Source: Flavobacteriales bacterium
GTDB lineage: Bacteria; Bacteroidota; Bacteroidia; Flavobacteriales; CAJXXR01
Direction of reading: 5' to 3'
NCBI GenBank assembly: GCA_025210805.1
Contig: JAOAQX010000011.1
Coordinates: 673-64,672, forward strand
DNA: 64,000 nt
Position numbers and translations under genes: made by a program
Notes under the pieces: model-generated
Seen by the model: the letters and a program-made list of their open reading frames with translations, nothing else
Databases searched by the model: none
Told to the model about the DNA's origin: nothing
In this document: positions 2,559 through 38,384 of the stretch, piece after piece
Layout: each line of letters starts with the position of its first letter
How positions within the stretch are numbered: the first letter of the stretch is position 1

Positions 2559-3050
2559 TTATTTAAGTAGTTTTTCTACTTCTTCCACAAGTTCGTCTTC
2601 ATCACCGTCGCTATATCCATTATGACTATAAACGATTTCTCCTTTGCTGTTAACCACAAATGTGTGTGGAATAGAACCTACATTCATGGCTCTTTTAAAG
2701 TCTTGGTTTTTATCTAACAATACATTGAATTCCCAAGCTTTTCCATTAACCAATGGCTTTACTCTAGAGGCGGCTCTTGCGTCATCTATAGAAATGGCAT
2801 AAAGCTCTACTCCTGTTTCTTCATTCCATTCTTCATACATCTCATTTATTGCATCAAGTTCTCTTTGACATGGTTTACACCATGTTGCCCAAAAACTAAT
2901 TACAACTGGTTTATCTGAAACTAAAGAGGCGGTATTTACAGTTTTCCCATTCATATCTTTGATATCTACACTTGGAAGTTTTTTTTGTGCCACAGCTACA
3001 AATCCAAATGCTAGAAACAACATTGATAGTAATACTTTTTTCATAATCAT
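2559..3050 (-). CDS. TlpA-like thioredoxin / redoxin family thiol:disulfide oxidoreductase
   Basis: Signal peptide plus the FWATWCKPCQRE motif (WCxxC thioredoxin active site). Confidence 0.8.
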   Translation of the reverse strand: MIMKKVLLSMLFLAFGFVAVAQKKLPSVDIKDMNGKTVNTASLVSDKPVVISFWATWCKPCQRELDAINEMYEEWNEETGVELYAISIDDARAASRVKPLVNGKAWEFNVLLDKNQDFKRAMNVGSIPHTFVVNSKGEIVYSHNGYSDGDEDELVEEVEKLLK

Positions 3051-20222: not shown

Positions 20223-20978
20223 CTAGTTCTCTCTTCCCACTAATTCCAAAACTAGGGTATTTCCGCTTCTATTTTTCATTTCCATTTTTAGAAATCCGTA
20301 TTTAGGATGATAGGTATATTTTCCTTTTCCAAACTTATTCGTCCCTTGTAAAAGAAAAACAAGCTTTTTTCCATAAAAAGTATTTCGATACACTTGTGCT
20401 GTGGTTTGAAATTTTACTCCTTGGTATTCCCATTTCTGACCAACAAATATGTTCTTTGAAGCATTGGGAGGGGGAATTTTAGAAAATTCTTCCATAAAAT
20501 AGGCTTGAGGGAATTCCATATTTAACGCCTCCTTGTCCTCAAAAACATGGTGTTTTTCAGAGATCCCTAGTTTTCCATGTGGTCTATTCCAGAATTCCCA
20601 CCGAACTTCCGTATTGAGCGTATTTGTATGTTCTGTATTCTCATGACTCACCAAAACCACTTTATCTATCGGGTATATATTTTCTATACCTTCGGCTCTG
20701 TCTCCTTTTCTTTCTTTTCTCCAATCGAATTGTTTTTTAGTCGCATCCCATACTATCACAATTTGACTTTTCACTTTATTTGCATCTTGAATCCAAATAT
20801 TATAAGTGTACTTTTTTCCAGATGGAAAAACAGTGTTATCCTCATTGGCTTTGTTAGGCGCTCCACTGTCTTTTATCACCTCCTGATTATCCTTATAAAG
20901 ATCTGGCACTGAATCGCAAGAAAAAAAACTCATTAAAATAAAAAGTACAAAAAGCCGTTTTGTAAGCATCATAATCAA
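20223..20978 (-). CDS. hypothetical lipoprotein
   Basis: Signal peptide with lipobox (LMSFFSCDS). No recognisable catalytic motif. Confidence 0.5.
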   Translation of the reverse strand: MIMMLTKRLFVLFILMSFFSCDSVPDLYKDNQEVIKDSGAPNKANEDNTVFPSGKKYTYNIWIQDANKVKSQIVIVWDATKKQFDWRKERKGDRAEGIENIYPIDKVVLVSHENTEHTNTLNTEVRWEFWNRPHGKLGISEKHHVFEDKEALNMEFPQAYFMEEFSKIPPPNASKNIFVGQKWEYQGVKFQTTAQVYRNTFYGKKLVFLLQGTNKFGKGKYTYHPKYGFLKMEMKNRSGNTLVLELVGREN

Positions 20979-21075
20979 ATAATTTTAGGCTTAAAGATAA
21001 AAATACCTCAGTAAAAATGAGTTTATTTTTGGTTTTTATGTTTGTGGAGCTTATATTTCTAGATAGTTATCCTGT

Positions 21076-21093
21076 AAAAAAAAAAAAAAAAAA
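21076..21093. repeat. poly(A)18 homopolymeric tract in divergent promoter region
   Basis: 18 consecutive A between the start of 20223..20978 (-) and the start of 21310..22401 (+). Confidence 0.9.
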
Positions 21094-21309
21094 TCAAAGC
21101 AATCACCCTACCTGTTTAACCGACTATTATAGCCTGTCACGACTTTTTGTGATGTGAATTCTTTGTACAGAAATAATGTATTGGTGAAAATCTATATTAT
21201 TAAAAATCAACGCTTCAATCTTATATTTAACATAGATTTAGTAACTTGTACCTGAATTAGTTCATTCCATTTCGGAATACACGAATAATTAACCTAAATT
21301 TATTTACTT

Positions 21310-22401
21310 ATGAAAAAGCTATTTTTTATCACCACATTTCTATTCTACTGTACGAGTATGATTGCTCAAGTTGGAGCATTCAAAATTAGGAACGATGCCG
21401 CCATTCAACTTGGATATAGTAATTATAGGTATCTCACCTTTGGTATTGGAGAAGACCCAAATAACAATAATGGATCATGGTCTATCGAACATTGGAATCA
21501 TGGACTTAATTTTTGGAAACCTTGGAATTCTTGGCATTCTGGAAATTATAAAATGTTTATCCACGATGCTGGTTTTGTAGGAATCAATATGAAACCCAAT
21601 GAAGGCTATGTCCAACAAGTCGCAACAGGTTCTTTTCTCTGGTGGTCCACCTACAGTACGCAAAGCAACTTTCGTCTCCAAGTACGAGGTAACACTATAT
21701 CTCATGGGAATTATGTATGGAGTGGGCAGAGCATGAAAAAGAACATTAATAGCCTAGATCATGGGTTGTCCAGTATTATGAAAATGAGACCCGTTAGTTA
21801 TCATTATGATTTGACCGTTTCACCTGGAGACTCTTTACCTCTATCTGATAGCGACCCTGTTAAAAACGCAACTCTTCAAGCCGAAAAAAATAGAAGTTTA
21901 CCTGAGGCTACAGAGCCTAAACATTTTGGTTTTATTGCAGAAGAGATAGATACCGTTTTCCCTAATATTGTTTCTCAAATTCAAGGTATAGAAGGTGTAA
22001 ATTATACAGAAATCATCCCTGTTTTAGTCAAAGGGATACAAGAACAGCAACAAATCATTGAGAGTCTAAAATCTGAAGTCAACAGGCTGAATGATTTAGT
22101 AGAAAGTATCAATACCGATATTATCAATGAAAAAGGAATTACTGCCAGTTTAGGACAAAACACTCCAAATCCCTTTAATGCCACAACCTCTATCTCCTAT
22201 GATATTCAGTCTGCTTTCACTGAAGCCCAAATAGTCGTTTATGATTTTTGGGGACAACAAAAAGACGAATATGATATATACTCCACAGGAGCAGGAACCT
22301 ATACTTTGGATGCCTCATCGTTGCCTGCCGGAACTTATCACTATGTCCTGATAGTTGATGATTATGTGGTTGATTCCAAGCTAATGCTCATCATTCACTA
22401 A
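21310..22401 (+). CDS. tail-fibre/peptidase S74 (intramolecular chaperone) domain protein with T9SS C-terminal sorting domain
   Basis: Signal peptide. The central segment …HFGFIAEEIDTVFPNIVSQIQGIEGVNYTEIIPVLVKGIQEQQQIIESLKSEVNRLND… resembles the endosialidase-chaperone/S74 autoproteolytic domain of phage tail fibres. The C-terminal ~90 aa (…GTYHYVLIVDDYVVDSKLMLIIH) are CTD-like. Confidence 0.55.
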   Translation: MKKLFFITTFLFYCTSMIAQVGAFKIRNDAAIQLGYSNYRYLTFGIGEDPNNNNGSWSIEHWNHGLNFWKPWNSWHSGNYKMFIHDAGFVGINMKPNEGYVQQVATGSFLWWSTYSTQSNFRLQVRGNTISHGNYVWSGQSMKKNINSLDHGLSSIMKMRPVSYHYDLTVSPGDSLPLSDSDPVKNATLQAEKNRSLPEATEPKHFGFIAEEIDTVFPNIVSQIQGIEGVNYTEIIPVLVKGIQEQQQIIESLKSEVNRLNDLVESINTDIINEKGITASLGQNTPNPFNATTSISYDIQSAFTEAQIVVYDFWGQQKDEYDIYSTGAGTYTLDASSLPAGTYHYVLIVDDYVVDSKLMLIIH

Positions 22402-22417
22402 TTCTAAAGTATAGGAT

Positions 22418-23782
22418 ATGAAACCACTGAAGATACACATATTATTGTTTGTGCTACTACTCTCCACTTCGTCAGGGACAGTAGCACAGAGTTTACCTAT
22501 AGGGGAGAATTATCATCTAGTTTTTAATGATGAATTTAGTGATAGTCTCATCAATACAGACAAATGGGAACAAAAAACACCATGGAACACCGCTACTAAT
22601 CTATTCATTGACTATTACGATGATGGAACAATTAAAAAAATATATGAACTGGCTTATCATAAATGGAGAGACCAAACAACCGATTACCGACCAGATACCA
22701 CAAACTGCAAGGTCTCTAATGGTACGGTAAAACTATATACCCGAAAAGAAAATTACGATGGTAATATCTGGGTTTGGGCACCATGCTACGCCAATGGAAT
22801 AACCATAGACGGTGATTCTTGTGATGATATGGTATATGGCCCTGGGGAAGATATTTCATCCTCTACTGGGTATAGATGCTTTGTAAGTAGCCGATATTTA
22901 CCTTATAAGTACACTACAGGAATGCTCTTTTCCAAAAAAAGCTTTAAATATGGCTATTTTGAAATCCGTTTTCGCCTTCCTCCGCCCCCTACTGCCCCCA
23001 AAAGACATATTGGGTTTGGACCCAATTTTTGGCTCTATAGTGCTGATAAAGATGGATCAAATTTCGGGTACGAAAATCACTGGAGTGAGATCGATATTTT
23101 TGAAATTGGCTATGACCAAGAGAACAATCTAAGCAATCTTTATACTACCAATGTGCATTATAGACCAATAGGTAGTGCTAGTAGTCATATCTCTAAAACA
23201 GGAAGACATGGCTATATCAGCTCAAACGAATGGCACACAGCTGGTATGCTTTGGACTTCGTCCGAAATAGAATTTTATCTGGACGGAGTAAAAATCAGAG
23301 ACTTTGAGCAAGAAATATCTATGCCAACAGACTCCCTCGTTCCTATGCCTCTTTGGATAGATATCTATTCTCCCAATAGAAATTTTGGAATCGATTTTGA
23401 CACACTAAGCACCAACGGAACTGCATTCCCTTATGTATATGAACTAGACTATGTGAGGGTATATCAGCTAAAACAAGCTTGTGAAATATCCAAACAGTAT
23501 TGTTCTGTTTTTGATGCAAGCACTTATGATGAACAACTCTATAAAAATATTGAATTTGGAGGGCTAGGTTGCCAACTAAATCTCGATAATTCGGAAGAAG
23601 TCACTTTTATGAGCGCTGAGGATATCGTATTTCACAATCAGGTGGAATTAAAACCTCAGGCAACCACCATTTTTGGAACACATATTTGTGAGCCTTATGA
23701 CCTTATACCAAAAATAGAACCCGACACCACAGTGGAACCCCCTCTATATTCTAAAATAAAATTTCTATCCGATGAAAACTAA
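22418..23782 (+). CDS. glycoside hydrolase family 16 (laminarinase-like) protein
   Basis: Signal peptide and the GH16 catalytic motif E-I-D-I-F-E (WSEIDIFEIG). Overlaps the next gene by 11 nt. Confidence 0.7.
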   Translation: MKPLKIHILLFVLLLSTSSGTVAQSLPIGENYHLVFNDEFSDSLINTDKWEQKTPWNTATNLFIDYYDDGTIKKIYELAYHKWRDQTTDYRPDTTNCKVSNGTVKLYTRKENYDGNIWVWAPCYANGITIDGDSCDDMVYGPGEDISSSTGYRCFVSSRYLPYKYTTGMLFSKKSFKYGYFEIRFRLPPPPTAPKRHIGFGPNFWLYSADKDGSNFGYENHWSEIDIFEIGYDQENNLSNLYTTNVHYRPIGSASSHISKTGRHGYISSNEWHTAGMLWTSSEIEFYLDGVKIRDFEQEISMPTDSLVPMPLWIDIYSPNRNFGIDFDTLSTNGTAFPYVYELDYVRVYQLKQACEISKQYCSVFDASTYDEQLYKNIEFGGLGCQLNLDNSEEVTFMSAEDIVFHNQVELKPQATTIFGTHICEPYDLIPKIEPDTTVEPPLYSKIKFLSDEN

Positions 23783-24464
23783 TTTATCATTAATTCTTCT
23801 TCTTTTGAGTATAGCAATTCACAATTCCTACGCTCAAATAACACCGGATTCGCTTTTGGGTGTTTATGTTGGGAAGTACTATAATAATCATAATGCTAAT
23901 TCTGACAATTGGTATATCGTTTCTGAGAATTGGACTGTACCCATCAAGGATTTAGATACACTAAATTGTCTTTCAAATAAAAGCATCACTCCATCTGGGA
24001 GTCAGCCATTTGTTTTCACTACTCCTTATGATTTTTGTAATTCAGATTTTGAGTATCAAGAAAACAATCCCGACTACTATAGATTTAATAGATTTTACGG
24101 AAAAGACAGTCTATGGGGCAATAATGAATTCATTCCAGGTCCACCACCTACAGGAACTCCATATTCCACAAGATTTATCGGGAAAAAGATGTATGAAATA
24201 GGAACAACAGAGCTGGAAAACATGCTTGCTATTCAAGTATATCCTAACCCAGCCAAAGAACTACTCAATATCCGTACAGAAGAAGATATACAGGCGGTGG
24301 ATATTCATATCTTTAATAGCAGAGGGCAAAGAGTGAAAACTTTTATAGAAAAGTACCATAAAAACTGGCTACAGGTAGATGTTTTAGATCTTCCCAAAGG
24401 AATTTATTATATCAAAATAACTTCCTTTGGAAGGGTATTTCATCAGAAATTTATTAAGATATGA
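23772..24464 (+). CDS. secreted T9SS-CTD protein, tandem paralog 1
   Basis: Signal peptide, variable middle, and a C-terminal block (…QVYPNPAKELLNIRTEEDIQAVDIHIFNSRGQRVKTFIEKYHKNWLQVDVLDLPKGIYYIKITSFGRVFHQKFIKI) with a T9SS type A CTD pattern. The stop overlaps the next start (ATGA). Confidence 0.65.
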   Translation: MKTNLSLILLLLSIAIHNSYAQITPDSLLGVYVGKYYNNHNANSDNWYIVSENWTVPIKDLDTLNCLSNKSITPSGSQPFVFTTPYDFCNSDFEYQENNPDYYRFNRFYGKDSLWGNNEFIPGPPPTGTPYSTRFIGKKMYEIGTTELENMLAIQVYPNPAKELLNIRTEEDIQAVDIHIFNSRGQRVKTFIEKYHKNWLQVDVLDLPKGIYYIKITSFGRVFHQKFIKI

Positions 24465-25150
24465 AACATATTTTTTTAATCCTTCTTCTTTTGAGTATAG
24501 CAATTCACGATTCCTACGCTCAAATAACACCGGATTCGCTTTTGGGTGTTTATGTTGGGGATCGTTTCAAAAAAACCAATGCCTATTCAAATGAATGGCT
24601 TCTGACTTCTAAGAATTGGGTAGTCACAGTGGACAAATTGGACACTACAACCTGTATTATTAGTGAAACCGTTACCCCTTGGGGTAATGCTACAATATAT
24701 CTTTATACATCTTATGATTTTTGCTTTGCAGATTTTAATTATCAAGAAAATGACCCCAACTATTATAAGTTTAGTTGGTTTTATGGAAAAGACAGTCTTT
24801 GGGCTAATAATGAATTCATTCCAGGCCCTCCTCCAAGTGGAACCCCATACTCTTTAAGATTTATCGGGAAAAAGATGTACGAAATAGGAACAACAGAGTT
24901 GGAAAATATGCTCGCTATTCAAGTATATCCTAACCCAGCCAAAGAACTGCTCAATATCCGTACAGAAGAAAACCTAGAGGCGATGGATATTCATATCTTT
25001 AATAGCAGAGGGCAAAGAGTGAAAACTTTTATAGAAAAGTACCATAAAAACTGGCTACAGGTAGATGTATTGGACCTACCCAAAGGGATCTATTATATCA
25101 AAATAGCTTCCTTTGGAAGGGTTTTTCATCAGAAATTTATTAAAATATGA
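24461..25150 (+). CDS. secreted T9SS-CTD protein, tandem paralog 2
   Basis: Near-identical first ~35 codons and last ~100 codons to 23772..24464, with a diverged middle. The ATGA overlap with the next ORF is also present. Confidence 0.65.
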   Translation: MKHIFLILLLLSIAIHDSYAQITPDSLLGVYVGDRFKKTNAYSNEWLLTSKNWVVTVDKLDTTTCIISETVTPWGNATIYLYTSYDFCFADFNYQENDPNYYKFSWFYGKDSLWANNEFIPGPPPSGTPYSLRFIGKKMYEIGTTELENMLAIQVYPNPAKELLNIRTEENLEAMDIHIFNSRGQRVKTFIEKYHKNWLQVDVLDLPKGIYYIKIASFGRVFHQKFIKI

Positions 25151-25362
25151 AAAGAACAATAATCTTGCTTTCAACTGTCATCCTATTATTCATCGGATAT
25201 TATATTTTGAACAATAAAGACGAAAAGGACATACAGAACCCCCTAAAAACTCAAACAAAACCGAGCAAAAAAGAAATTCCAAAGGATATCAACCTTTCAG
25301 ATTTCCTTACCGAGTATAAACAAGGGGAAATCAACCTAGATATTGAAGCTAAACTAACGTGA
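25147..25362 (+). CDS. small signal-anchored ORF (possibly the N-terminal fragment of a disrupted TlpA-like gene)
   Basis: 71 aa with an N-terminal hydrophobic anchor (MKRTIILLSTVILLFIGYYIL). Translationally coupled (ATGA) to the upstream paralog. Confidence 0.35.
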   Translation: MKRTIILLSTVILLFIGYYILNNKDEKDIQNPLKTQTKPSKKEIPKDINLSDFLTEYKQGEINLDIEAKLT

Positions 25363-25630
25363 GTTCGACGTAAGAATCGAGCTACACTTCGACGCTATCG
25401 CTTTGATTTTCTTTCTTTTGCCTTGAAGCAAAAAAAGAAACAAAAAAAGTTCAAGACTTATTTTTAAGAATCACAAAAACCTTTGTAAAACTTAAGTGCA
25501 ACCCCTGGATCTCCAGAAGCCTCTGGAGCTAAGGGGTTTTACTAAAGTTTTACCGTGATTTCCGTAATCCTTAAAAATAGGTCGATTTTAAAATTACCTA
25601 TTCGATACTTTATAAAACTCAAATAACATA

Positions 25631-26026
25631 TTGAAATCAAGTATTAAAATTAATCCCTTACATCGAACTTACGTTAAACTAGAATATTTGGATGGGAGTC
25701 CATTTTCTTATCAAGATCTTAAAACCAAAACGTATATCGTGTCATTTTGGGCGACTTACTGCTCTCCGTGTATTGAGAAATTTCCTTTACTCAATGAGAT
25801 TGCTCAAAGCAATGAATCTTTAGAAATAATCATGATTTCAGATGAAAAAACAGACTTATTAAAAACATTCTTGCAGCATCGAGAAGATATTTCCGAACTC
25901 CATTTTTTAAAACATCAAGGAAAAAATGCGGATATTGGAATAAATTTACTTCCCACTACCCTATTTGTGGAGAATGGAATACACAAAATAATATCCAATA
26001 AAGACTTGGAAAGTTTTTTGGAGTAA
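25631..26026 (+). CDS. TlpA-like thioredoxin-fold protein lacking ATG start and signal peptide (TTG start; possible truncated/pseudogene remnant)
   Basis: VSFWATYCSPCIEKFP thioredoxin motif. The ORF starts at TTG and has no signal peptide, although TlpA-family proteins are extracytoplasmic. Confidence 0.45.
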   Translation: MKSSIKINPLHRTYVKLEYLDGSPFSYQDLKTKTYIVSFWATYCSPCIEKFPLLNEIAQSNESLEIIMISDEKTDLLKTFLQHREDISELHFLKHQGKNADIGINLLPTTLFVENGIHKIISNKDLESFLE

Positions 26027-26048
26027 AAAAAACATAAATACTTTAATA

Positions 26049-27311
26049 ATGAAACAGCTTTCTTTACTACTAAGCCTCATAACACTCTTTAGTTGTACAA
26101 GATCAGAAAGTGAATTATCTAAAGTTTCTAAACATTTCACGGCATACCAAAGAAATGAGAAACGACAATTATTTGAAGACATTCAAGAATCTTTACAAGG
26201 AAAAAGAATTTTGTTATTAGGCGAAACTGGACATGGAGACGGTTCAGCCTTCGAATTAAAGTCAGAGATTGTGGACTATTTAAATAAACATGATAATTGG
26301 GAAATACTTGCACTAGAAGGTGGATCATTATTTAGTTTATACCTTGCAGACAATAACTTACCTATTCATAAAAAAATTGGTGTTCCCACGTTAGAACAAA
26401 GCTGGTTCTATATTTGGTCTAATAGCAACGAAGTTTCTCAATTAAAAGAAATAGCTAAAAACCAATCGATGAATATTCTTGGTATAGAACCCATATTTGA
26501 TTTCTATTCAGCAGCATACTTCTATCCATTTATTATAAAAAACGTGGAGATTTCTCCAGATTACAAGAAGAGATTGAAAGCTCTTCGCAAAATACAAACA
26601 CAATTGTTTAAATCTACTAAAAACAAATCTTTGGTTAGTATAGATGAGTTAATAGATTTTGAAAAAGGAATTAATAATCTTAAAGACTCTGTAATTACAT
26701 GGGATATTGCTCATCAAGCCATGATACTTCAGCAAATTTCGAATATTGAATCTAATCTACCCAAATACAAAAACTATATTCTAAATCAATATACTTTCGA
26801 AAACGAAAGCATAGCCATTGAAAAAAGAGATGCTCAAATGTTCTCAAATCTAGAATGGATTCTAGAGCAGTATCCGAATAAAAAGATTATCATTTGGGGA
26901 GCCAATTTCCATATCACAAAAGATATCAGTGAATTTGAATACAACAAACCTGAAGACAAAAACTGGTATCAGCGAGCCCAATTATTCGGTATGTATGTCA
27001 ATCAAAAATATGGTAATGAATCTTTTTCTCTCGGTCTGATAAAAGGAGAAGGAACTAGTGGCACAGTATTTAGGAGTCAAGTTGATACATTCTCTGCAAA
27101 TGAAACTAGTTTAGAATATGAGCTTCTCAAAAACAAAAGCATGTACTATGGATTACTGAATACCTCAACACTTTCTTTGCCCTATAAAAATATGGAAATA
27201 GAATCCTCCGTATTGGGCACTAAAAAAGGAAAGTTATTTAAAGGATTTGATGGCATACTTTTCCAAAGAAATATGAAAGCTGCAACCAATCAGCAAAAAA
27301 ATAGACAATAA
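26049..27311 (+). CDS. Tiki/ChaN/erythromycin-esterase superfamily-like lipoprotein
   Basis: Lipobox (LFSCTRS). The motif LLLGETGHGDGSAFEL…ILALEGG resembles the GExHG…E signature of erythromycin esterase/ChaN/Tiki proteins. Confidence 0.45.
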   Translation: MKQLSLLLSLITLFSCTRSESELSKVSKHFTAYQRNEKRQLFEDIQESLQGKRILLLGETGHGDGSAFELKSEIVDYLNKHDNWEILALEGGSLFSLYLADNNLPIHKKIGVPTLEQSWFYIWSNSNEVSQLKEIAKNQSMNILGIEPIFDFYSAAYFYPFIIKNVEISPDYKKRLKALRKIQTQLFKSTKNKSLVSIDELIDFEKGINNLKDSVITWDIAHQAMILQQISNIESNLPKYKNYILNQYTFENESIAIEKRDAQMFSNLEWILEQYPNKKIIIWGANFHITKDISEFEYNKPEDKNWYQRAQLFGMYVNQKYGNESFSLGLIKGEGTSGTVFRSQVDTFSANETSLEYELLKNKSMYYGLLNTSTLSLPYKNMEIESSVLGTKKGKLFKGFDGILFQRNMKAATNQQKNRQ

Positions 27312-29035: not shown

Positions 29036-29437
29036 ATGAAAAGCAATAGCTTCTTAAAAGTAAAAAATTACCTCCTTGATTTGAAATACGATATTTCTTA
29101 TCAAAATGAAAAAGATGGAATTCTGATGATACAGAATGAACCAGAGGGAATCAAAAATCTGCTCATAGGATTAGCAGATCCTATTTTGATTATGGAACAA
29201 TACCTCTGTACCATTCCTAGCCCTACGGCAGAAATCTATTCAGAATTGCTCAAAAAAAACCGAGACATGGTACATGGCGCCTTCGTGTTGGATGAATCTA
29301 AAACGAAGCTGATTTTTAGAGATACACTTCAGTTAGAAAATTTGGATCAAAACGAACTCGAAGCCTCCATCAACTCATTAAGTCTCCTACTAAGCGAGTA
29401 TTCCAATGAGATACTCAAGTATTCATCAAAAAAATAA
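29036..29437 (+). CDS. hypothetical soluble protein (possibly YbjN-like), first gene of the PspA-flotillin module
   Basis: 133 aa with no TM segment, 7 nt upstream of pspA. Confidence 0.5.
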   Translation: MKSNSFLKVKNYLLDLKYDISYQNEKDGILMIQNEPEGIKNLLIGLADPILIMEQYLCTIPSPTAEIYSELLKKNRDMVHGAFVLDESKTKLIFRDTLQLENLDQNELEASINSLSLLLSEYSNEILKYSSKK

Positions 29438-29443
29438 AAGATT

Positions 29444-30154
29444 ATGAATTTTTTTAAACGACTTTTCAAAATCGGGCAAGCAGAAGCCAACTCTGCCGTT
29501 GATAAAATGGAAGACCCGATAAAAATGACGGAACAAGGTATCCGTGATATGAAAGAAGAATTGGCAAAAAGCCTAGAAGCTCTTGCTGAAGTAAAAGCTA
29601 CGACAATAAGAGCCCATAAGGACTACGAAAGTTACCTTGCCAAAGCCGAGGAATACCAAACCAAAGCCTTACTCCTGCTCAAAAAAGCACAACAAGGCGA
29701 AATGGAAATGGCTGAAGCCGAAAATTTGGCTACTCAATCCTTAGTAAAAAAGGAACAGCAAACAGAACATGCCGAAGGTGCCAAAACAGAACATACCAAA
29801 CTTTCGCAATCTGTTTCTAATTTGGAAGGAAATATCAGCGAGCTAAGAAGCACCATCGAAAAATGGGAAAATGAACTCAAAACGCTTAAAGCTCGTGTAA
29901 AAGTAAGTAGTGCAACCAAAAAAATCAACAAAGAAATGGCAAGAATCGATCAAGATTCTACTGTTGAAATGTTAGAACGCATGAAAGAAAAAGTAGCTCA
30001 GGAAGAAGCCATGGCAGAAGCTTATGGTGACATTGCCGAAAAAGGAAAATCGATTGATAAAAAAATTGATAAAGCCATTGATACGCAAAAAGAATCGGCA
30101 AAAACTGAACTAGAAAAACTAAAAGATCAGTTAGGAATGACGGAAAATGAATAA
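29444..30154 (+). CDS. pspA: PspA/IM30 (Vipp1) family protein
   Basis: N-terminus MNFFKRLFKIGQAEANSAVDKMEDPIKMTEQGIRDMKEEL matches the PspA/IM30 start (FxRL…DKxEDPxKMxxQxIRDM). The whole 236 aa are a predicted coiled coil. Confidence 0.85.
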   Translation: MNFFKRLFKIGQAEANSAVDKMEDPIKMTEQGIRDMKEELAKSLEALAEVKATTIRAHKDYESYLAKAEEYQTKALLLLKKAQQGEMEMAEAENLATQSLVKKEQQTEHAEGAKTEHTKLSQSVSNLEGNISELRSTIEKWENELKTLKARVKVSSATKKINKEMARIDQDSTVEMLERMKEKVAQEEAMAEAYGDIAEKGKSIDKKIDKAIDTQKESAKTELEKLKDQLGMTENE

Positions 30155-30212
30155 GTTTACTGTTCAATAGTAAATTTTCCACAAAACAATACCTTAAAAC
30201 AAAGTAATAAAG

Positions 30213-30929
30213 ATGATCGATATTTTATTCTCCCCAGTCAATATGACGCTCACCATTTTACTGATAATTCTAATTTTATATTGGGTGATCTCTATGCTTA
30301 CGGGAACGGACTGGGATGTGGATGTAGATATCGACGTTGACGTAGATATTGATATAGATATTGATGCCGATATTAATCATCAAATTCCCACACAAGATTT
30401 TGAGTTTGGAGAACTTTCCAATACTGAGATTAACAAGGAAGATATTTTGTCCAAAAGACTTCCCAGAAAGCTCAAATGGTGGCAAATAGTACTCATTCAT
30501 TTCAATTTTGTGGGACTTCCTTTTATGTTCACTTTTACCTGTTGGATTTTCTTCTGGTGGTTTACCACGCTTTTATCCACCTATATCACGGGGAGTTATG
30601 ACAATTCCTTTGGATTCATTCTTTTCTTTATTCTGTTGATTCCTTCTTTGTATCTCACAAAATTGTTCACCATTCCTTTTAAAGCATTTTTTAAAAACAT
30701 CAACAAAGATGGTGACCAAGCCATCAATTTTGAAGGTAGGCTTGGACATATCAAATCGAGTATTTCGGGAGAAAAACTCGGCACGGCAGAACTCATCATT
30801 GAAGGCAACCCTTATATATTGAATGTAAAAGCATTCGAAGGACAGAAGATTGAATACGGACAACAAATTTTGGTCATTATTCAAGATTCCTCCAAAACTT
30901 TTTATTTAGTAAAACCATATTCCAATTAA
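30213..30929 (+). CDS. NfeD-like/YqiJ-like membrane protein with acidic (DV/DI)n repeat
   Basis: TM helices, a DWDVDVDIDVDVDIDIDIDADINH repeat, and a C-terminal OB-fold-like segment (GRLGHIKSSISGEKLGTAELIIEGNPYILNVKAFEGQKIEYGQQILVI) typical of NfeD partners of SPFH proteins. Confidence 0.6.
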   Translation: MIDILFSPVNMTLTILLIILILYWVISMLTGTDWDVDVDIDVDVDIDIDIDADINHQIPTQDFEFGELSNTEINKEDILSKRLPRKLKWWQIVLIHFNFVGLPFMFTFTCWIFFWWFTTLLSTYITGSYDNSFGFILFFILLIPSLYLTKLFTIPFKAFFKNINKDGDQAINFEGRLGHIKSSISGEKLGTAELIIEGNPYILNVKAFEGQKIEYGQQILVIIQDSSKTFYLVKPYSN

Positions 30930-30950
30930 TTAAACCTTAAAAATAACACT

Positions 30951-33050
30951 ATGACAGATGAAATTTTATCCATTGTAGGAATAGGAGTAGGAGTCATACT
31001 CTTTTTGGTGATTGTATATTTCGCCATTATCGCCATGTTCTACCGAAAAATCCCACAAGGAAAAGCCTTGGTGAGAACAGGTTTCGGGGGAACCAAAGTA
31101 GCTACGGACAAAGGACTTTATGTAGTTCCCGTATTCCACAAAGTAGAAATCATGGATATTTCGGTAAAAAAGATTGATATCGAACGTATTTCGTCGGATG
31201 GTCTTTTGTGTAAAGACAACCTGAGAGCGGATATCAAAGTAGCCTTTTTTGTAAGAGTAAACAATGAAGTGGAGCATATCAAAAAGGTAGCTCAAACCAT
31301 TGGGTGTACCCGTGCCTCAAGCCATGCTACTTTAGAAGCACTTTTTGAAGCCAAGTTCTCGGAAGCCTTAAAAACAGTAGGAAAAAAATTCGATTTTATT
31401 GAACTTTACGAAGCTCGTAGAGAGTTTAGAGACGAAATTATCAATATTATCGGAACCGATCTAAATGGATATATTTTAGATGATTGTGCCATCGATTATT
31501 TAGAACAAACTTCTATCGGACATCTAAAACCTGATAATATTTTGGATGCCGAGGGAATCAAAAAGATTACCGAGTTAACGGCTATTCAAAACAAAAAAGC
31601 CAATTTGATCAAAAGAGATGAAGAAAAAGTCATCCGCAAGCAAGATGTTGAAGCTCGTGAAGCTATTTTGGAACTCGACAAACAACTGGCTGAAAAAGAA
31701 GAACAACAGGCTCGTGAAATTGCCAATATTAAAGCTAGAGAACAAGCTGAAATAGACAAGGTAGCTTCAGAAGAAAGGCTTAAAGCAGAAAATGCTCGAA
31801 TTGCATCGGATGAGAAAATTGCTATTGCCGAAGAAAACAAAGATCGCCAAATCATTGTAGCTCAAAAAAACAAAGAACGTACAGACGCTGTCGAGACCGA
31901 AAGAGTGGAAAAAGACCGTGCTTTGGAAGCTACCGAAAGAGAACGCATAGTTACACTCGCTCAGATCGAGAAGGAAAAAGTAGTGGAAGTAGAAAAGAAA
32001 AATATCCAAGACGTAATCCGAGATCGTGTGGCGCTTGAAAAAGGAGTTGTAGAAGAACAAGAAAACATCAAAGACCTGGAAGCTTTTAAGGAAGCCGAAA
32101 GAGAAAAACAAGTAGCGATTACCCATGCAGAAAAAGCTGCCGAGGAAAATATGATTCAGCAAATAAAAGTAGCTGAGGCCGAAAAAGAAGCTTCGAAACA
32201 AAAAGCAGAACAACTGCAAATAGAAGCTCAGGCACAAAAAGATGCTGCCGTAAAAGAAGCAGATGCCCGTAAAACCATTGCCGAAGCGAGAGCCAAAGAA
32301 GAAGCTGCCATTGGTATTTCGGAAGCTCAAGTAATGCATGCCAAAGCAGAAGCCAGCGAAAGACAAGGATTTGTGGAAGCCAATGTAACAGAAAAACAAG
32401 CCTTAGCGGAAGCTATCGGAATTAAAGCCAAAGCCGATGCACTCAAGGAACAAGGTCTTGCAGAAGCAGAAGTGATTCGTCAAAAAGGAGAATCGGAGGC
32501 CGATATCATCAAACAAAAAGCCTTTGCAGAAGCCGTAGGAATAGACGAAAAAGCAGAAGCCATGAAGAAATTTGATGGTGTAGGTAGAGAACACGAAGAA
32601 TTTAAACTGAAACTGGATAAAGAACTTCAAGTGGACTTGGCACAAATTAATATTCAAAAAGAAATTGCTGATGCACAAGCTATGGTAATTGCCGAAGCCC
32701 TAAAAGCTGCTAATATTGATATTGTAGGTGGAGAGACCATGTTCTTTGACCAGATTATCGGGCAAGTAACTAGAGCCAAAGGATTCGATCGTTTGGTAGC
32801 ACATTCTGAAACCGTAACCGATGTAAAAGACGCTATTTTAGGTTCTGATGACGTAAAAGGAAATCTTTTAGAAAAAGTACGAGATATGGCAATCAAATAC
32901 GGAGTCTCTTCAGAAGATCTTAAAAACCTAAGTATTGCCCAGCTTATTTTTAAACTGCAAAGCGAAGCTTCTTCTGATGAAAAACAAGGAATCAGTGGAT
33001 TATTAGGATTAGCGAAAGCTTTAGGTTTGGACCAAAATAAATTGTCCTAA
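30951..33050 (+). CDS. flotillin family protein (SPFH/band-7 domain plus long E/A/K-rich coiled coil)
   Basis: N-terminal TM, SPFH core (…GFGGTKVATDKGLYVVPVFHKVEIMDISVKKIDIER…), then ~400 aa of EA-repeat coiled coil as in YqiK/FloT. Confidence 0.85.
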   Translation: MTDEILSIVGIGVGVILFLVIVYFAIIAMFYRKIPQGKALVRTGFGGTKVATDKGLYVVPVFHKVEIMDISVKKIDIERISSDGLLCKDNLRADIKVAFFVRVNNEVEHIKKVAQTIGCTRASSHATLEALFEAKFSEALKTVGKKFDFIELYEARREFRDEIINIIGTDLNGYILDDCAIDYLEQTSIGHLKPDNILDAEGIKKITELTAIQNKKANLIKRDEEKVIRKQDVEAREAILELDKQLAEKEEQQAREIANIKAREQAEIDKVASEERLKAENARIASDEKIAIAEENKDRQIIVAQKNKERTDAVETERVEKDRALEATERERIVTLAQIEKEKVVEVEKKNIQDVIRDRVALEKGVVEEQENIKDLEAFKEAEREKQVAITHAEKAAEENMIQQIKVAEAEKEASKQKAEQLQIEAQAQKDAAVKEADARKTIAEARAKEEAAIGISEAQVMHAKAEASERQGFVEANVTEKQALAEAIGIKAKADALKEQGLAEAEVIRQKGESEADIIKQKAFAEAVGIDEKAEAMKKFDGVGREHEEFKLKLDKELQVDLAQINIQKEIADAQAMVIAEALKAANIDIVGGETMFFDQIIGQVTRAKGFDRLVAHSETVTDVKDAILGSDDVKGNLLEKVRDMAIKYGVSSEDLKNLSIAQLIFKLQSEASSDEKQGISGLLGLAKALGLDQNKLS

Positions 33051-33098
33051 GCAAGAGAAATAGTTTAGTTTTTTCAACAAAATGGAGTTGTACCAAAA

Positions 33099-33539
33099 GT
33101 GATACATTGCTTTTGGTACACAAAACTCCTATCAGGAATTTTATCAATAAAAAGGATGTTTACTATCATCATATACAGCATATTGTCAGGATTATTTTCC
33201 TATTTTCTCTATATGCTTTTTAGCTCCAAGAATATTGGATGGAATGCAGATACTCTGCTCCCCATCTTAATTATGAGTGCGGTAAGCGTTTTGATGATCA
33301 GCCTTTTGTTTTCACAAGAATACCTACTTACAGATCAAACTTCTACCGAAACTAAAAAGCCCGTATTTATGGAGCGCATTGATTCTATTTCGTATATAAG
33401 TTCGAAAAAAGATTCAGCACTTCTCCCAACAGATTCCACTATTTCGGAAGCTTATCATCCGTCTTTTGACAAGCTCTTTATCACTCCAAGACGAGCCCAT
33501 TTTTTTACACAAGAAATCATCAAAAGTCAGATTAAATAA
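33099..33539 (+). CDS. small predicted membrane protein (uncertain)
   Basis: 146-aa ORF filling the flotillin-giant gap, with two hydrophobic helices. The annotated start lies inside a 10-bp-stem hairpin (33094-33123), so the real start may be the internal Met. Confidence 0.3.
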   Translation: MIHCFWYTKLLSGILSIKRMFTIIIYSILSGLFSYFLYMLFSSKNIGWNADTLLPILIMSAVSVLMISLLFSQEYLLTDQTSTETKKPVFMERIDSISYISSKKDSALLPTDSTISEAYHPSFDKLFITPRRAHFFTQEIIKSQIK

Positions 33540-33569
33540 ACCTACCCCACACTAGAAATACAATAATAT

Positions 33570-36500
33570 ATGAGCCTAGAAACTGGTACATACGAAATCA
33601 TACAAGGAAGATTAGAAAAGCAAAAAAAAGATCTATTAGAAAGACTGGAAAAGCTCAATAATTCCAGAAAAGAAGTCTTTGGTGCTGTAGATCTAAAAAT
33701 TATTGCCAATAAAAGGATCAATACGGATAATAATTGTATTGCTCGAGATATTATTTCTTTTGGAAATACCTGTCTTTTGGGGTATAATGTACATATAGGT
33801 CTGCGATCGCAAATTAAACTTTCCGATGTTTTTTCTGCCTACCAATTTGAGAATGGAAATTTTAAAGCCATTGATTTAACACTCATTAATGATGAGGCTT
33901 TTATTAATGATTTCGAGAACCTATACAAATACTATCGAGATACTATTTTTGCTCGTTTTGCCATTATTGGGAATTATGTCCACATGGTTTTTCAGATTTC
34001 GGATAAAATTCATGATATAAAAACCTTCAAATGGCTCTTGAATGACAATCAATTGCGTTATATCGATAATCGATCTGATTTTGAATATGGTTTTCCAAAC
34101 CAACATGAATTTGAATGGAAAAAACCAGTAAGAGAAATGCACCGATACGGTACACATGCCCATGTTTCTATTCTAGATAAAGTATTTGTAGAAACCATTG
34201 GTGGCGATCTTACGATAAAGATAGAAGACAATACCGACATTGGACAAGGGATCTTTTCGGAACCTGTAGAATTTCAAGATCAAACCCTAGATGATGCCGA
34301 GTATTTCTATGCAGATTTAGGTAATCTGATTATCCTAAAAATTAAACCCTACCAAGAAGATTTTCGATATTTTGTGTATAACCACAAAGTACAAGAAGTC
34401 TATAAAATAGACAGCATCAAAGATGCAACTGTTTTGCTTCCCGAAAATCAAGGAATTTTATTTCCAAACGGTTATTATCTTCAAACTGGAACTTACAAAC
34501 TCTTTGAAAAAAGCATTGAGCAGGTTAAGTTCTTAAAACGACTTGCAGCTCCCAATGGAGAGGATTTTATCTTTGTATTCTACGAAGAAGCCAAAGGGGA
34601 TTTTGTTTTGATATTTTATAATATTATCGATCAAGAAATAAAAACACCCATTATTTGCAACGGATACACCGTTTTTCCCGATGGAGAACTTTCTTATTTT
34701 AAAGCCGAAGAAGACGCTACCAAACACCATGTAATCCAAATTTGGCAAACGCCATTTACCAAGAAAACACTCGTTCAATCGGAACATTCAGATCGTTTGA
34801 TTTATAAAATTGGGAATAAAGACCTTGTAAAAGCCATGGCAGAAAGTAGGGAACTCATTGGCTTGCTCAATAAAGAGGATTCTTACGATGGGCTTTATGA
34901 TGATATTGCCAAGCTTTCTGGAGATATAGTTGATTCCTACTATTGGATACATGAGCCCGAAACCGCACAATTATCGGTTCCTTTATCAGAAATTCAAAAC
35001 ACGGCAAATACTGCCATAGACGAGTTTGAAAAAGTCATTCAACTCAAAAAACAGGCAAAAGAAAAAACCGACGCACTTTCTCAAGAAGCCAAACAACTTT
35101 TTGATGAAATAAAACACGCACGTTTTCAAGATATTCAGGAATTCGTGGAAGTTTTAGCTAATCTGAGATTACTCAGAGGAAATACAATTGGACTCAAAGA
35201 TATTCGCTACACCGAAAATGCCTTTATTGAAGCGCTAGAAAACGAAATCGTTGAAAAAACAGGACATATTTCTACTCGCTGTGTAGATTTCTTGATGAAT
35301 GCGGAAGCCTTGCTTCCTTACACCCAAGCCGTAAAAGAAAAAGAGGCAAATATTGAAGCCGTCAAAAAAGTAATTGATGGGAAAAAGCTTCACGAAGAAT
35401 TGGAAAAAATTAGTGCAGATCTAGAACTTCTCATTGATATTGTGAATAATTTGGAAATTGAAGATACGGCACATTCTACGCAAATAATAGATGGTATTTC
35501 GGTCATTTTTGCGGAACTCAACCGTGTAAAAGCCTCCTTAAAAAGAAGACTTTCTAATCTTGGGACTGCCGAAGCTCAAGCAGATTTTACGGCACAAATA
35601 AAACTTTTTGATCAGTCTGTGCTCAATGCTTTGGATCTTTCACAAACACCCGAAAAATGTGATGAATACCTCACTAAACTATCAGTTCAACTAGAAGAAA
35701 TAGAAGGGAAATTTGCCGAATATGACGAATTTGTCAACCATATTTTAGAAAAAAGAGAAGAAATTTATTCGGCATTCGAAACCCGAAAAAATGCCTTAAT
35801 TGAAAAACGCAACAAAAGATCTCTGACACTTTCCAACTCGGCAGATAGAATCTTGAAAGGCGTACGTAAGAAGGCCCAAACCTTTAGAACTGCCGAAGAA
35901 ATACACGCTTACTTTGCTGCCGATATTATGGTTGCCAAAATCCATGATATCATCCAAAACCTCAACGATCTGGAAGATTCTGGAAAAGCAGAACAAATTG
36001 CTTCCAAATTAAAGATAAGCAAAGAAGAAAGTCTCAGAAAACTTAAAGATAAACTAGAATTATACGAAGAAGGTGATCATATCATCCGTTTTGGAAATCA
36101 TCGTTTTGGGGTGAATCAACAACCGTTAGATTTAAGTATTGTAGAGCAAGATCACCAACTATTTTTTCATCTTTCTGGTTCAGACTTTTATGAGCAGGTG
36201 AAAGACGAAAATATCCGAAATCACCAATCTCTTTGGAATGCGGAATATGTTTCGGAAAACACACATGTTTACCGCAGTGAGTATTTAGCTTTTCAAATGC
36301 TAAAAAAATATACTTCGGAACAATTACTCAAACCAGATTTTCTAAAAAAAATCATCAAAGAATATACTTCAAAACACTATACCGAAGGATATACCAAAGG
36401 TGTGCACGATAGTGATGCCGAAACTTTAGTAACTGCCTTAGCGCAGATTCAACAGAGTATGGGATTGTTAAAATTCTCTCCTGAAATAAGAGGTAAAGCC

Positions 36501-38384
36501 TTATGGTTTTGGAAGAGTTTGAATCCTCAAAAACATCAAAGTTGGCAAGAAAAAATATCCGCTGCTCAGCAAGTGCTCCAACTGTTCCCAAAATCGGAAA
36601 ATTTCACTTTTCTAATTGATGAGCTAGAAGAAGCTGTAGCTCATTTCTATTCTGACTGGAAAGGATGGAAAACAACAGAGAACCGAACCATTGCCTTATA
36701 TCTTTTTGAGGAGTTTCAAAAAGAAGACTCAATCATAATCAGCCGAAAGGCAGAAAAAATCTATCAAGAATTTATAGCGCATCTCCAAAACAATCAAGCA
36801 AAAAGCACTTTTACTAAGCGTATAGAAAAGATGGAAAACTTGGAAGAGAAAGTTGCCTACTGCCAATATTGGTTATCGGCTTTCATACAAAATAGCCAAG
36901 ACCCAGATACACTCTTCTATATTTATGAAATTATCGCTCTAATTCTCTTCGATTTTTCTTCATTTACCCATGTCAATACAACTGAAACGCTAAAAGAAAT
37001 TGCTCTCATTGGAGCACATCCTTCGATAAAAAACGGGAGCTACACCTTAAATTATCATAGCTTCTTTGACAAACTCACCCGTTTTGAACAAGAATATATT
37101 CCGCAGTTTTTAGCTTTTAAAAATGCTAAACAAACCCTTTTACAAGAGAAAAAAGCGAGTTTAAAACTAAATGAATTTAAACCCAAAGTTTTGGCTTCGT
37201 TTGTTAGAAATAAACTTATAGACCAAGTATATCTTCCACTTTTTGGGAGCAATCTTGCCAAACAACTAGGTACCGTTGGCGACAACAAAAGAGTGGATCG
37301 GATGGGAATGCTCTTACTCATCTCTCCGCCTGGATACGGAAAAACGACCCTGATGGAATATATTGCCAACCGTATGGGGATGACTTTTATGAAAATAAAC
37401 GGACCCGCCATTGGGCATGAAGTTACTTCAGTGGATCCAATGTCTGCCAACAACTCGGCCGCCAGAGAAGAGCTCAAAAAACTTAATCTCGCCTTTGAAA
37501 TGGGAAATAATGTGATGCTTTACCTAGACGATATTCAGCATTGCAACCCAGAATTTTTACAAAAATTTATTTCCCTTGCCGACGGACAAAGAAAAATAGA
37601 AGGAGTCTATAATGGTCAACCTAAGACTTATGATTTTAGGGAGAAAAAATTCTGTATCATCATGGCAGGAAATCCTTATACCGAAAGTGGAGAAAAATTT
37701 CAAATTCCCGATATGCTCACCAACCGATCAGACATTTATAATCTGGGAGACATTATCGGAGAATCGGCACAGTTGTTTGAACTAAGTATGGTAGAAAATG
37801 CTTTGAGCTCAAATACTATTCTAAGGAATCTGAGTACACAAAGCATGGACGATCTGTACGAAATCATCCATTTTATTGAAGGAAACAAACAAGGAACCTT
37901 AAACCTAAAGGGCAACCACAGTAAGAGTGATATAGAAACCTATGTAGCTACCTTAGAAAAACTATTGAAGATAAGAGATATTGTTCTCCAAGTAAACAAA
38001 ACCTATATCGAATCGGCTTCTATGGATGATGCTTACCGTACCGAACCTTCTTTTAAACTCCAAGGGTCTTACCGAGACATGAATAAACTAGCCGAGAAAA
38101 TACTCCCCATCATGAATGCTAAAGAATTAGAAATATTAGTCAATACGCATTATGAAAATGAATCTCAAACTTTAACCTCTGCCTCAGAAGCCAATTTATT
38201 AAAGTATAAAGAACTCACGAAACAACTCACAGAAGATGAAATAGAAAGGTGGAAAAGCATCAAGCAAACGTTTAAAGAAAATCAATCGACTCAATCGGAT
38301 AGTTATATGCAATCACTTTTGGAAGAATTGGCAAAATTGACCGATGGTTTAGATGGGATAAAAGGTGTGCTGGGAAAAAGATAA
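33570..38384 (+). CDS. 1604-aa protein with C-terminal AAA+ ATPase domain of the AAA_5 (MoxR/dynein/McrB-like) class; N-terminal ~1250 aa of unknown function
   Basis: Walker A LLISPPGYGKTTLMEY (nt 37332-37349 encode GYGKTT). Walker B VMLYLDDIQH. Sensor-1 region FCIIMAGNPYTESGEKFQIPDMLTNRSDIY matches the MoxR-type pattern. Long predicted coiled-coil stretches in the middle. Uninterrupted ORF. Confidence 0.8.
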   Translation: MSLETGTYEIIQGRLEKQKKDLLERLEKLNNSRKEVFGAVDLKIIANKRINTDNNCIARDIISFGNTCLLGYNVHIGLRSQIKLSDVFSAYQFENGNFKAIDLTLINDEAFINDFENLYKYYRDTIFARFAIIGNYVHMVFQISDKIHDIKTFKWLLNDNQLRYIDNRSDFEYGFPNQHEFEWKKPVREMHRYGTHAHVSILDKVFVETIGGDLTIKIEDNTDIGQGIFSEPVEFQDQTLDDAEYFYADLGNLIILKIKPYQEDFRYFVYNHKVQEVYKIDSIKDATVLLPENQGILFPNGYYLQTGTYKLFEKSIEQVKFLKRLAAPNGEDFIFVFYEEAKGDFVLIFYNIIDQEIKTPIICNGYTVFPDGELSYFKAEEDATKHHVIQIWQTPFTKKTLVQSEHSDRLIYKIGNKDLVKAMAESRELIGLLNKEDSYDGLYDDIAKLSGDIVDSYYWIHEPETAQLSVPLSEIQNTANTAIDEFEKVIQLKKQAKEKTDALSQEAKQLFDEIKHARFQDIQEFVEVLANLRLLRGNTIGLKDIRYTENAFIEALENEIVEKTGHISTRCVDFLMNAEALLPYTQAVKEKEANIEAVKKVIDGKKLHEELEKISADLELLIDIVNNLEIEDTAHSTQIIDGISVIFAELNRVKASLKRRLSNLGTAEAQADFTAQIKLFDQSVLNALDLSQTPEKCDEYLTKLSVQLEEIEGKFAEYDEFVNHILEKREEIYSAFETRKNALIEKRNKRSLTLSNSADRILKGVRKKAQTFRTAEEIHAYFAADIMVAKIHDIIQNLNDLEDSGKAEQIASKLKISKEESLRKLKDKLELYEEGDHIIRFGNHRFGVNQQPLDLSIVEQDHQLFFHLSGSDFYEQVKDENIRNHQSLWNAEYVSENTHVYRSEYLAFQMLKKYTSEQLLKPDFLKKIIKEYTSKHYTEGYTKGVHDSDAETLVTALAQIQQSMGLLKFSPEIRGKALWFWKSLNPQKHQSWQEKISAAQQVLQLFPKSENFTFLIDELEEAVAHFYSDWKGWKTTENRTIALYLFEEFQKEDSIIISRKAEKIYQEFIAHLQNNQAKSTFTKRIEKMENLEEKVAYCQYWLSAFIQNSQDPDTLFYIYEIIALILFDFSSFTHVNTTETLKEIALIGAHPSIKNGSYTLNYHSFFDKLTRFEQEYIPQFLAFKNAKQTLLQEKKASLKLNEFKPKVLASFVRNKLIDQVYLPLFGSNLAKQLGTVGDNKRVDRMGMLLLISPPGYGKTTLMEYIANRMGMTFMKINGPAIGHEVTSVDPMSANNSAAREELKKLNLAFEMGNNVMLYLDDIQHCNPEFLQKFISLADGQRKIEGVYNGQPKTYDFREKKFCIIMAGNPYTESGEKFQIPDMLTNRSDIYNLGDIIGESAQLFELSMVENALSSNTILRNLSTQSMDDLYEIIHFIEGNKQGTLNLKGNHSKSDIETYVATLEKLLKIRDIVLQVNKTYIESASMDDAYRTEPSFKLQGSYRDMNKLAEKILPIMNAKELEILVNTHYENESQTLTSASEANLLKYKELTKQLTEDEIERWKSIKQTFKENQSTQSDSYMQSLLEELAKLTDGLDGIKGVLGKR

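Follow-up and report, generated by a model that had tools for sequence, protein, structure and literature searches.

We analyzed a stretch of 64,000 nucleotides (nt) from contig JAOAQX010000011.1 of a Flavobacteriales bacterium (assembly GCA_025210805.1), hereafter called the window, in which two adjacent paralogous genes, p1 and p2, encode small proteins that are predicted type IX secretion system (T9SS) cargo. The pair belongs to a cluster of five consecutive open reading frames (ORFs), whose coordinates and parts are listed in Table 1: genes for an S74 tail-fibre-like protein and a GH16-like glycoside hydrolase, separated by a 16-nt spacer, precede p1 and p2, and a putative small ORF follows them. 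The window holds two p1-type copies only. A sequence-only reading of this DNA had described start/stop overlaps of the ATGA type throughout, from the GH16-like gene to the small ORF. The p1/p2 and p2/small-ORF junctions are indeed true ATGA overlaps, whereas the GH16-like gene and p1 overlap by 11 nt (ATGAAAACTAA; start at 23772, stop at 23780–23782). The surroundings of the cluster are chromosomal and include an alternative complex III operon, Rho, DnaG, CoxA and PurF. A promoter/terminator scan yielded nothing usable within the cluster, and Rfam gave no credible match across positions 20900–26100. The p1 and p2 genes were found on one contig only, Ga0400167_171295 of JGI metagenome 3300039008, which encodes a protein identical to p2.

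Table 1. Features of the gene cluster and of the p1/p2 mosaic in window coordinates (aa, amino acids; CTD, C-terminal domain; Sp, signal peptide)
Feature	Position (nt)	Strand	Size or identity	Parts and remarks
S74 tail-fibre-like protein	21310–22401	+	363 aa	First of the five ORFs; N-terminal region, Peptidase_S74 (aa 141–221), predicted coiled-coil-like stretch, T9SS type A CTD
GH16-like glycoside hydrolase	22418–23782	+	454 aa	PF00722; Sp, EIDIFE motif at aa 224–229 (nt 23087–23104), Cys-rich C-terminal module, Pro-rich tail
Paralogue 1 (p1)	23772–24464	+	230 aa	putative Sp aa 1–21, predicted lipocalin-like barrel aa ~22–140, linker, T9SS type A CTD aa 156–229
Paralogue 2 (p2)	24461–25150	+	229 aa	Architecture as p1
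Putative small ORF	25147–25362	+	71 aa	Hydrophobic N-terminal segment; called by JGI
5′ homogenised tract	p1 23790–23873; p2 24476–24559	+	82/84 nt identical	
Diverged barrel core	p1 23874–24101; p2 24560–24787	+	60% nt identity	Saturated silent sites
3′ homogenised tract	p1 24222–24464; p2 24908–25150	+	93% nt identity	Encodes the T9SS CTD; 85-nt identical run

The p1 and p2 proteins are 76% identical, with one codon indel close to the start, and at the nucleotide level this identity is distributed as a mosaic. In gene-1 coordinates, identity is 97.6% over nt 19–102, falls to 52% over nt 103–255, and rises again through 77% (nt 256–330) and 86% (nt 331–450) to 93.4% over nt 451–693. This agrees with the near-identical termini and diversified middle that the sequence-only reading had pointed out, except that the first 18 nt differ (56% identity). 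The longest identical runs measure 85, 50, 35 and 27 nt, and none of 20,000 random placements of the 134 p1/p2 differences produced a run of ≥85 nt (P < 5e-5, permutation). The 5′ tract encodes most of the signal peptide together with the first 13 mature residues. It begins at nt 19, after the 4-nt (p2) and 11-nt (p1) overlaps with the preceding genes, within which any change would also alter the 3′ end of the preceding gene.

Silent sites were compared segment by segment with the Nei–Gojobori method, which gives synonymous divergence (dS) and the ratio of nonsynonymous to synonymous divergence (dN/dS). The dS value was 0.09 in codons 1–34, where seven differences in total leave dN/dS uninformative; 1.78 in codons 35–85 (dN/dS 0.36); 1.21 in codons 86–120 (0.11); 0.81 in codons 121–150 (0.06); and 0.27 in the CTD, codons 151–230 (0.10). 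A count restricted to codons that give the same amino acid in both paralogues found 1/28 differing in codons 1–34, 10/14 in codons 35–85, 5/25 in codons 86–120, 10/27 in codons 121–150 and 10/73 in the CTD. The ends thus depart from the middle (codons 35–150, 25/66 differing; Fisher's test, p = 8e-5). Because silent change is uneven even where the residues are equal, protein-level constraint is no explanation, and the result indicates that the termini were homogenised by recombination, in line with the gene conversion at the ends proposed earlier. A simple recent duplication followed by uniform drift does not describe these data, since core and ends differ in substitution pattern.

The amino-acid identity of the two cores is 41%, compared with 93% for the ends, and other members of the protein family are 31% identical among themselves on average (maximum 53%); the p1 core reaches up to 34% identity to family members from other organisms. 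With silent sites saturated and core identity near that between organisms, the divergence of the cores is old. Both cores also carry an insertion (DFEYQENNPDYY / DFNYQENDPNYY) that the other 20 family members lack, which argues for common descent of the two cores inside this lineage.

The same mosaic was seen at other loci. In a locus from another metagenome (L005), an adjacent pair of small CTD genes shows 49/50 nt identical over a stretch that spans the last codons of the upstream GH16-like gene, a non-coding spacer and the start codon; over the last ~140 nt of the pair identity is ~90%, whereas the cores are barely alignable and match no better than by chance. An adjacent pair at L018 has a dS of 0 in the signal peptide, above 1.4 in the core (dN/dS 0.28) and 0.30 in the CTD. 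At positions 6958–6970 of L018, the second copy has CTG at the position homologous to the ATG start of the first; it may use this weak start codon, or the gene may be decaying. At L004, three small CTD genes lie 3′ of the enzyme gene, and their C-terminal tails, judged by eye only, do not appear homogenised. As far as these sequence comparisons reach, the terminal mosaic appears to be frequent, not universal, and to have arisen in three independent lineages of one gene family.

Export signals, predicted fold and selection on the core

Both proteins are predicted T9SS cargo by their CTD, as the sequence-only reading had supposed. PF18962 (Por_Secre_tail) matches p1 with 55.7 bits (aa 156–228) and p2 with 55.4 bits (aa 155–227) against a curated cut-off of 27, and TIGR04183 matches them with 49.1 and 47.0 bits against a curated cut-off of 23, with the domain at the extreme C-terminus. 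The N-terminus as read from the sequence begins with MK, followed by the hydrophobic stretch LILLLLSIAI and by SYA-Q, with cleavage expected before Q22. A Gln at the mature N-terminus is expected from the Bacteroidetes 'Q-rule', and 22/22 family members have Q22, the residue with which the mature protein is predicted to start. A CTD of ~75 residues scoring about twice the curated cut-offs, the invariant Gln and a putative N-terminal Sec signal recall T9SS type A cargo, whereas the passenger, a predicted barrel of ~115 residues, is far smaller than typical enzymatic or adhesin cargo.

Besides the CTD, p1 and p2 match nothing in Pfam, NCBIfam, PHROGs or PDB sequences. An exhaustive HMMER profile search of 1.84 billion representative proteins recovered p2 and ~22 proteins of 205–266 aa with an equal layout. 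A word-indexed homology search returned nothing for the p1 barrel or for the 22-sequence alignment; these negatives stem from the index itself, given that the exhaustive search did recover the family. A genome scan with patterns specific to the pair gave no match. The 22-sequence alignment was too divergent for pattern building, while a five-sequence alignment worked, and a close orthologue of the pair was not found in genome or metagenome collections. The 22-sequence alignment contains 18 invariant columns, including Q22, D26, S27, L28, G30, Y32, G34, C66, T84, Y86, C89, F108, D112 and S113, together with a near-invariant P-P-P-N loop. Among family members from other organisms, the CTDs differ strongly from one another.

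AlphaFold2 run with the 22-sequence alignment modelled the mature domain as seven long antiparallel strands behind a short N-terminal helix, with a predicted local distance difference test score (pLDDT) of 87.6 and a predicted TM-score (pTM) of 0.78; a single-sequence model of the barrel (pLDDT 37.5) was unusable. On this confident model, the mature domain is predicted to be a small up-and-down, lipocalin-like β-barrel of ~115 residues, which the invariant Cys pair (C66, C89) probably staples. Identity as a carbohydrate-binding module was accordingly rejected, and the predicted topology speaks against the carbohydrate-binding fold that had been considered for the core before.

The furthest claim that the model would support is a lipocalin-like fold, and we do not assert membership of the lipocalins. 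Lipocalins and calycins have an up-and-down barrel of eight antiparallel strands behind a short N-terminal helix, where the model shows seven long strands. The lipocalin signature G-x-W (SCR1) is absent, the conserved motif being D-S-L-x-G-x-Y-x-G instead; the Pfam lipocalin family does not match the barrel at E ≤ 0.1; and the modelled barrel ends in a strand, with no C-terminal α-helix. The viral fold library BFVD gave no significant match. The small lipocalin-like (calycin-type) surface proteins BT_2261 (PDB 3h3i) and BT_2262 (5fq3) of Bacteroides are 7–12% identical to p1 and p2. The latter differ from them in lacking the signature and the helix just named, in having a T9SS CTD as tether in place of a lipid, and in their genomic partner, which is the GH16-like/S74 pair and not a SusCD-type transporter.

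Alternate loops carry the conserved motifs IDTxxC, YxFC and PPPN as well as the N-terminal PDSL helix, and an up-and-down topology would place these elements at one end of the barrel. The variable residues occupy strands β1–β4 and the remaining loops. Again judging from topology, this variability may resemble that of lipocalins, whose open end and cavity vary.

The sequence-only reading had also suggested diversifying selection on a surface-exposed core. The dN/dS values of the core lie at 0.25–0.36, and at 0.11 in codons 86–120, all well below 1, which demonstrates that the barrel cores are under purifying selection and gives no direct evidence for the diversifying kind. Differences between p1 and p2 prefer columns that vary in the family (2.50 versus 1.53 bits, p = 2e-5), and they do so within the core alone as well (p = 0.0016). 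The segment in which the pair is most divergent, mature residues 13–63, is also the most variable in the family (mean entropy 2.26 bits versus 1.1–1.9 elsewhere). Entire strands have diverged and not just loops (0/6 residues identical in β3, 2/9 in β4), and the invariant fold residues, both Cys included, are retained in p1 and p2. No inverted repeats or other switching machinery were found near the two genes. The persistence of two distinct cores between recombining flanks suggests that both are useful.

The S74, GH16-like and barrel genes across loci

The GH16-like enzyme of the window matches PF00722 with 57.1 bits (cut-off 22; 2e-15). Like GH16 enzymes of the laminarinase and κ-carrageenase type, it has the Pfam GH16 domain and the ExDxxE motif; its PDB sequence matches include κ-carrageenase and laminarinase, down to 1.5e-10, and it aligns with the κ-carrageenase 9xkt across the catalytic region. 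The catalytic motif is present in 90/110 homologues and is intact, as EIDIFE, in the window enzyme. In contrast to the known enzymes, it represents a distant subfamily (E no better than 1e-10 to solved structures), contains a large insertion as well as a Cys-rich C-terminal module, and is paired with an S74 gene. PF18962 was found in 0 of 110 GH16-like homologue clusters, and a CTD was not detected in the window enzyme either.

The Cys-rich C-terminal module of this enzyme family (window 23480–23782, aa ~355–454; homologues P0029–P0051) follows the pattern CxTxKxYC...GGxGC...YVxLxEGFSxD...C, and a Pro-rich tail with PPPxSFxxR at its end comes after it in many members. No Pfam family matches this module, nor is it related to the T9SS CTD. 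Two candidate identities were rejected by profile comparison with hhalign, namely that of a cryptic CTD (probability 0.1% against the CTD profile) and that of a barrel homologue (probability 2.5%). The Pro-rich tail was likewise rejected as a docking peptide for the barrel, as the occurrence of the tail is not correlated with that of barrel genes.

The S74 protein matches PF13884 (3.4e-9) and TIGR04183 (28.9 bits, cut-off 23), and sequence search found no relatives of solved structure. It also matches many tail-fibre families of PHROG in their C-terminal parts, down to 1.6e-14. The chaperone domain and these matches are what it shares with phage tail fibres and tail spikes that end in Peptidase_S74; it differs from them in that its gene is chromosomal and has no phage genes in the neighbourhood, that a coiled-coil-like stretch and a T9SS CTD come after the chaperone, and that the glycanase of the window module is a separate gene.

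We examined 14 GH16-like loci, comprising the window and 13 others. An S74 gene, usually CTD-bearing, adjoins the GH16-like gene in at least 13/14: L020 has an adjacent 409-aa CTD protein with no recorded S74 match, and at L004 the contig holds only a C-terminal fragment of the upstream gene, which matches the window S74 protein. A small barrel-type gene lies directly 3′ of the GH16-like gene in 11/14 loci, with one to three such genes per module. Divergent small proteins at the barrel position, several of them missed by the hidden Markov model (HMM) of the family, are remote homologues (hhalign probability 95%, E = 2.6e-8). The first barrel gene often starts before the enzyme gene has ended: the window, L009 and L010 share an overlap of 11 nt, and L014 and L018 have an ATGA. 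This conserved synteny upholds the functional link to the GH16 enzyme that had been proposed. The 11-nt overlap occupies positions 3032–3042 of L009 and 1823–1833 of L010, which are two Bacteroidales metagenome-assembled genomes, so that the geometry of the junction is conserved across distant lineages.

At L019 (1107–8738; JGI 3300071516, a 3.55-Mb contig), the module is duplicated in tandem, in the order small lipoprotein, GH16-like, 213-aa protein, S74, small lipoprotein, GH16-like, small lipoprotein, S74. In place of a CTD, lipobox-type Cys signals mark the small proteins that occupy the barrel positions; these proteins were missed by both HMMs and are tied to the barrel by inspection of motifs by eye only. 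Their lipoprotein-type signals fit surface or outer-membrane tethering. Flanking genes differ at every locus, which points to the triad as a self-contained unit. The S74, GH16-like and barrel genes apparently form a conserved, undescribed module of uncultured Bacteroidota: neither the barrel family nor the module is described in Pfam, NCBIfam, PHROGs or the literature searched, and that literature offered general precedents only for the module and for gene conversion of CTDs. A paper on a Bergeyella 'lipocalin' proved to concern unrelated proteins.

Origin and role of the paired barrels

Taking the evidence together, we lean, if only slightly, towards the explanation that p1 and p2 are old tandem paralogues of a family of T9SS-cargo barrels, with ends homogenised by recombination and cores kept distinct, and that they are accessory to the GH16-like module. 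The duplication is old, the barrel cores having diverged long enough ago for silent sites to become saturated, and recombination between the copies has repeatedly homogenised the signal peptide at the 5′ end and the CTD at the 3′ end. Each protein comprises a putative Sec signal with cleavage expected before the invariant Gln, the predicted barrel, a short linker and a type A CTD. The barrels would be exported via Sec and T9SS and tethered at the cell surface. What they bind there could be a small ligand, a glycan fragment or some protein partner within the GH16-like/fibre module, and the two copies may differ in specificity. Differing specificities would explain why the cores stay distinct although the sorting signals, being interchangeable, are free to homogenise. 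We infer that the barrels probably serve the GH16-like module as surface-tethered subunits that bind a ligand or a partner.

That parts of tandem paralogues can evolve in concert is already well known. Interlocus gene conversion that gives mosaic divergence in tandem paralogues has reportedly been modelled for HMA4 (bioRxiv 10.1101/2025.10.29.685298); that case shares with the present pair tandem copies, near-identical tracts beside diverged segments and uneven silent divergence, whereas in p1 and p2 homogenisation concerns two export signals, one at either gene terminus, with three independent lineages involved. The pair would accordingly serve as a textbook-style case in which recombination keeps export signals identical and functional cores apart, in three lineages. 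Its context is more useful than the pair itself, as it comprises an unannotated family of lipocalin-like T9SS cargo and a three-gene module.

Several points weigh against this explanation. Pairwise dN/dS with saturated dS leaves room for episodic positive selection at a few sites, and replacement of one core by a foreign allele could equally give a mosaic. T9SS export and tethering are read from the CTD only, and no T9SS machinery gene occurs among the window ORFs scanned. The sequence is a metagenome contig, so that exact tract boundaries rest on correct assembly of a tandem repeat. With regard to the proposed role, the barrel gene is absent from 3/14 GH16-like loci (L011, L012 and L015), which indicates that the enzyme does not require the barrel, and members of the barrel family also occur without GH16 (L002/L003 and L007).

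Replacement of a core is the basis of an alternative that we regard as possible and, on the whole, rather unlikely: a recent duplication, after which one barrel core was exchanged by recombination with a divergent allele or homologue, with the signal-peptide and CTD sequences as handles. The p1 and p2 cores are hardly more similar to each other than the p1 core is to those of other organisms, their ends being far more alike, and L005 likewise combines conserved ends with foreign-looking cores. Porphyromonas gingivalis is documented to be naturally competent and to exchange alleles of surface proteins (PMC5266723). Against such an exchange, dS falls gradually along the genes (1.78, 1.21, 0.81, 0.27) and not in one step, a pattern better matched by a number of conversion events that differed in length than by a single swap. 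The insertion common to both cores, missing from the other family members, also argues against it, and a donor sequence was not found in any collection searched.

A different role for the barrels, as partners of the enzyme itself, seems doubtful. They would then act as an inhibitor or immunity protein (PliC-like), or as a carrier whose CTD serves the export or surface retention of the docked GH16-like enzyme, which has none. The overlap of the barrel start with the 3′ end of the enzyme gene speaks for such a partnership, as does the distribution of sorting signals, the GH16-like family having no CTD and both neighbouring gene types bearing one. However, three GH16-like loci have no barrel gene, barrel genes are present without GH16, the Pro-rich C-terminal tail of the enzyme does not track the presence of the barrel gene, and a fusion of enzyme and barrel was seen in 0 of 110 homologues.

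An extended scheme, which we likewise consider improbable, would unite the S74 protein, the CTD-less GH16-like enzyme and the barrels in one surface machine. CTD-bearing or lipid-anchored subunits would dock the enzyme and let it hitch-hike on the T9SS, the duplicated barrels would provide alternative docking or ligand specificities, and gene conversion would keep the export signals interchangeable. If the CTD-less enzyme does need its CTD-bearing neighbours, this would extend the view that every T9SS substrate needs its own C-terminal signal; if the enzyme is independent of them, the module would still be a candidate for a new surface glycan-processing unit outside the SusCD paradigm.

Diversifying (positive) selection on the core, for antigenic, receptor or adhesin variation, is an explanation to which we give little weight. 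It would account for mature residues 13–63 being both the most divergent part of the pair and the most variable in the family, and the persistence of distinct cores despite recombining flanks implies selection against homogenising them. The low dN/dS in all core segments (0.36, 0.11 and 0.25) and in the core of the L018 pair stands against it, however, as do the substitutions that track the constraint pattern of the family and the divergence of whole strands and not of exposed loops alone. The window moreover holds two copies only and no silent cassettes, and inverted repeats and switching machinery are missing near the genes.

That the mosaic is an assembly artefact is unlikely, as the pattern recurs in other assemblies. 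Finally, the idea that there was no recombination, the ends being alike through strong purifying selection on functionally constrained signal peptide and CTD (CTD dN/dS 0.10) while the core drifts faster, can be set aside almost entirely: constraint on the protein spares synonymous sites, which nevertheless differ at 1/28 and 10/73 codons at the ends versus 10/14 in the core, non-coding upstream DNA is part of the near-identical stretch at L005, and the CTDs of the family differ greatly between organisms.

Neighbouring features of the window

Among the window ORFs scanned, the only other CTD-bearing cargo genes are those at 21310–22401, the S74 gene, and at 56715–59213 (type B, below the cut-off). 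The latter encodes an 832-aa protein that the T9SS type B sorting-domain model TIGR04131 matches only weakly, at 26.7 bits (cut-off 35), and it may be another T9SS cargo.

The small ORF that follows p2 has no significant family in Pfam, NCBIfam or PHROG, and a homologue was not found in nine related loci scanned (L002–L010). In the 268-nt gap 3′ of it sits an imperfect palindrome (25455–25583) with 52-nt arms that are 77% complementary, a 25-nt loop and a predicted hairpin of about −52 kcal/mol. This palindrome is single-copy in the window, has no credible Rfam match, and could be a terminator or the remnant of a small mobile element. Beyond the gap, 268 nt 3′ of the small ORF, lies a thioredoxin/TlpA-like ORF (25631–26026) with the motif WATYCSPC and apparently without a signal or anchor. 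The small ORF and this ORF may be the two halves of one TlpA-like gene, split by an insertion that bears the palindrome.

Further downstream, at 29036–38384, the window contains a run of stress- or defence-like genes. It includes a CesT_Tir_1/YbjN-like protein, PspA/IM30, two ORFs of 238 and 699 aa without a family, and a 1604-aa ATPase with DUF3686, DUF7902 and AAA_5.

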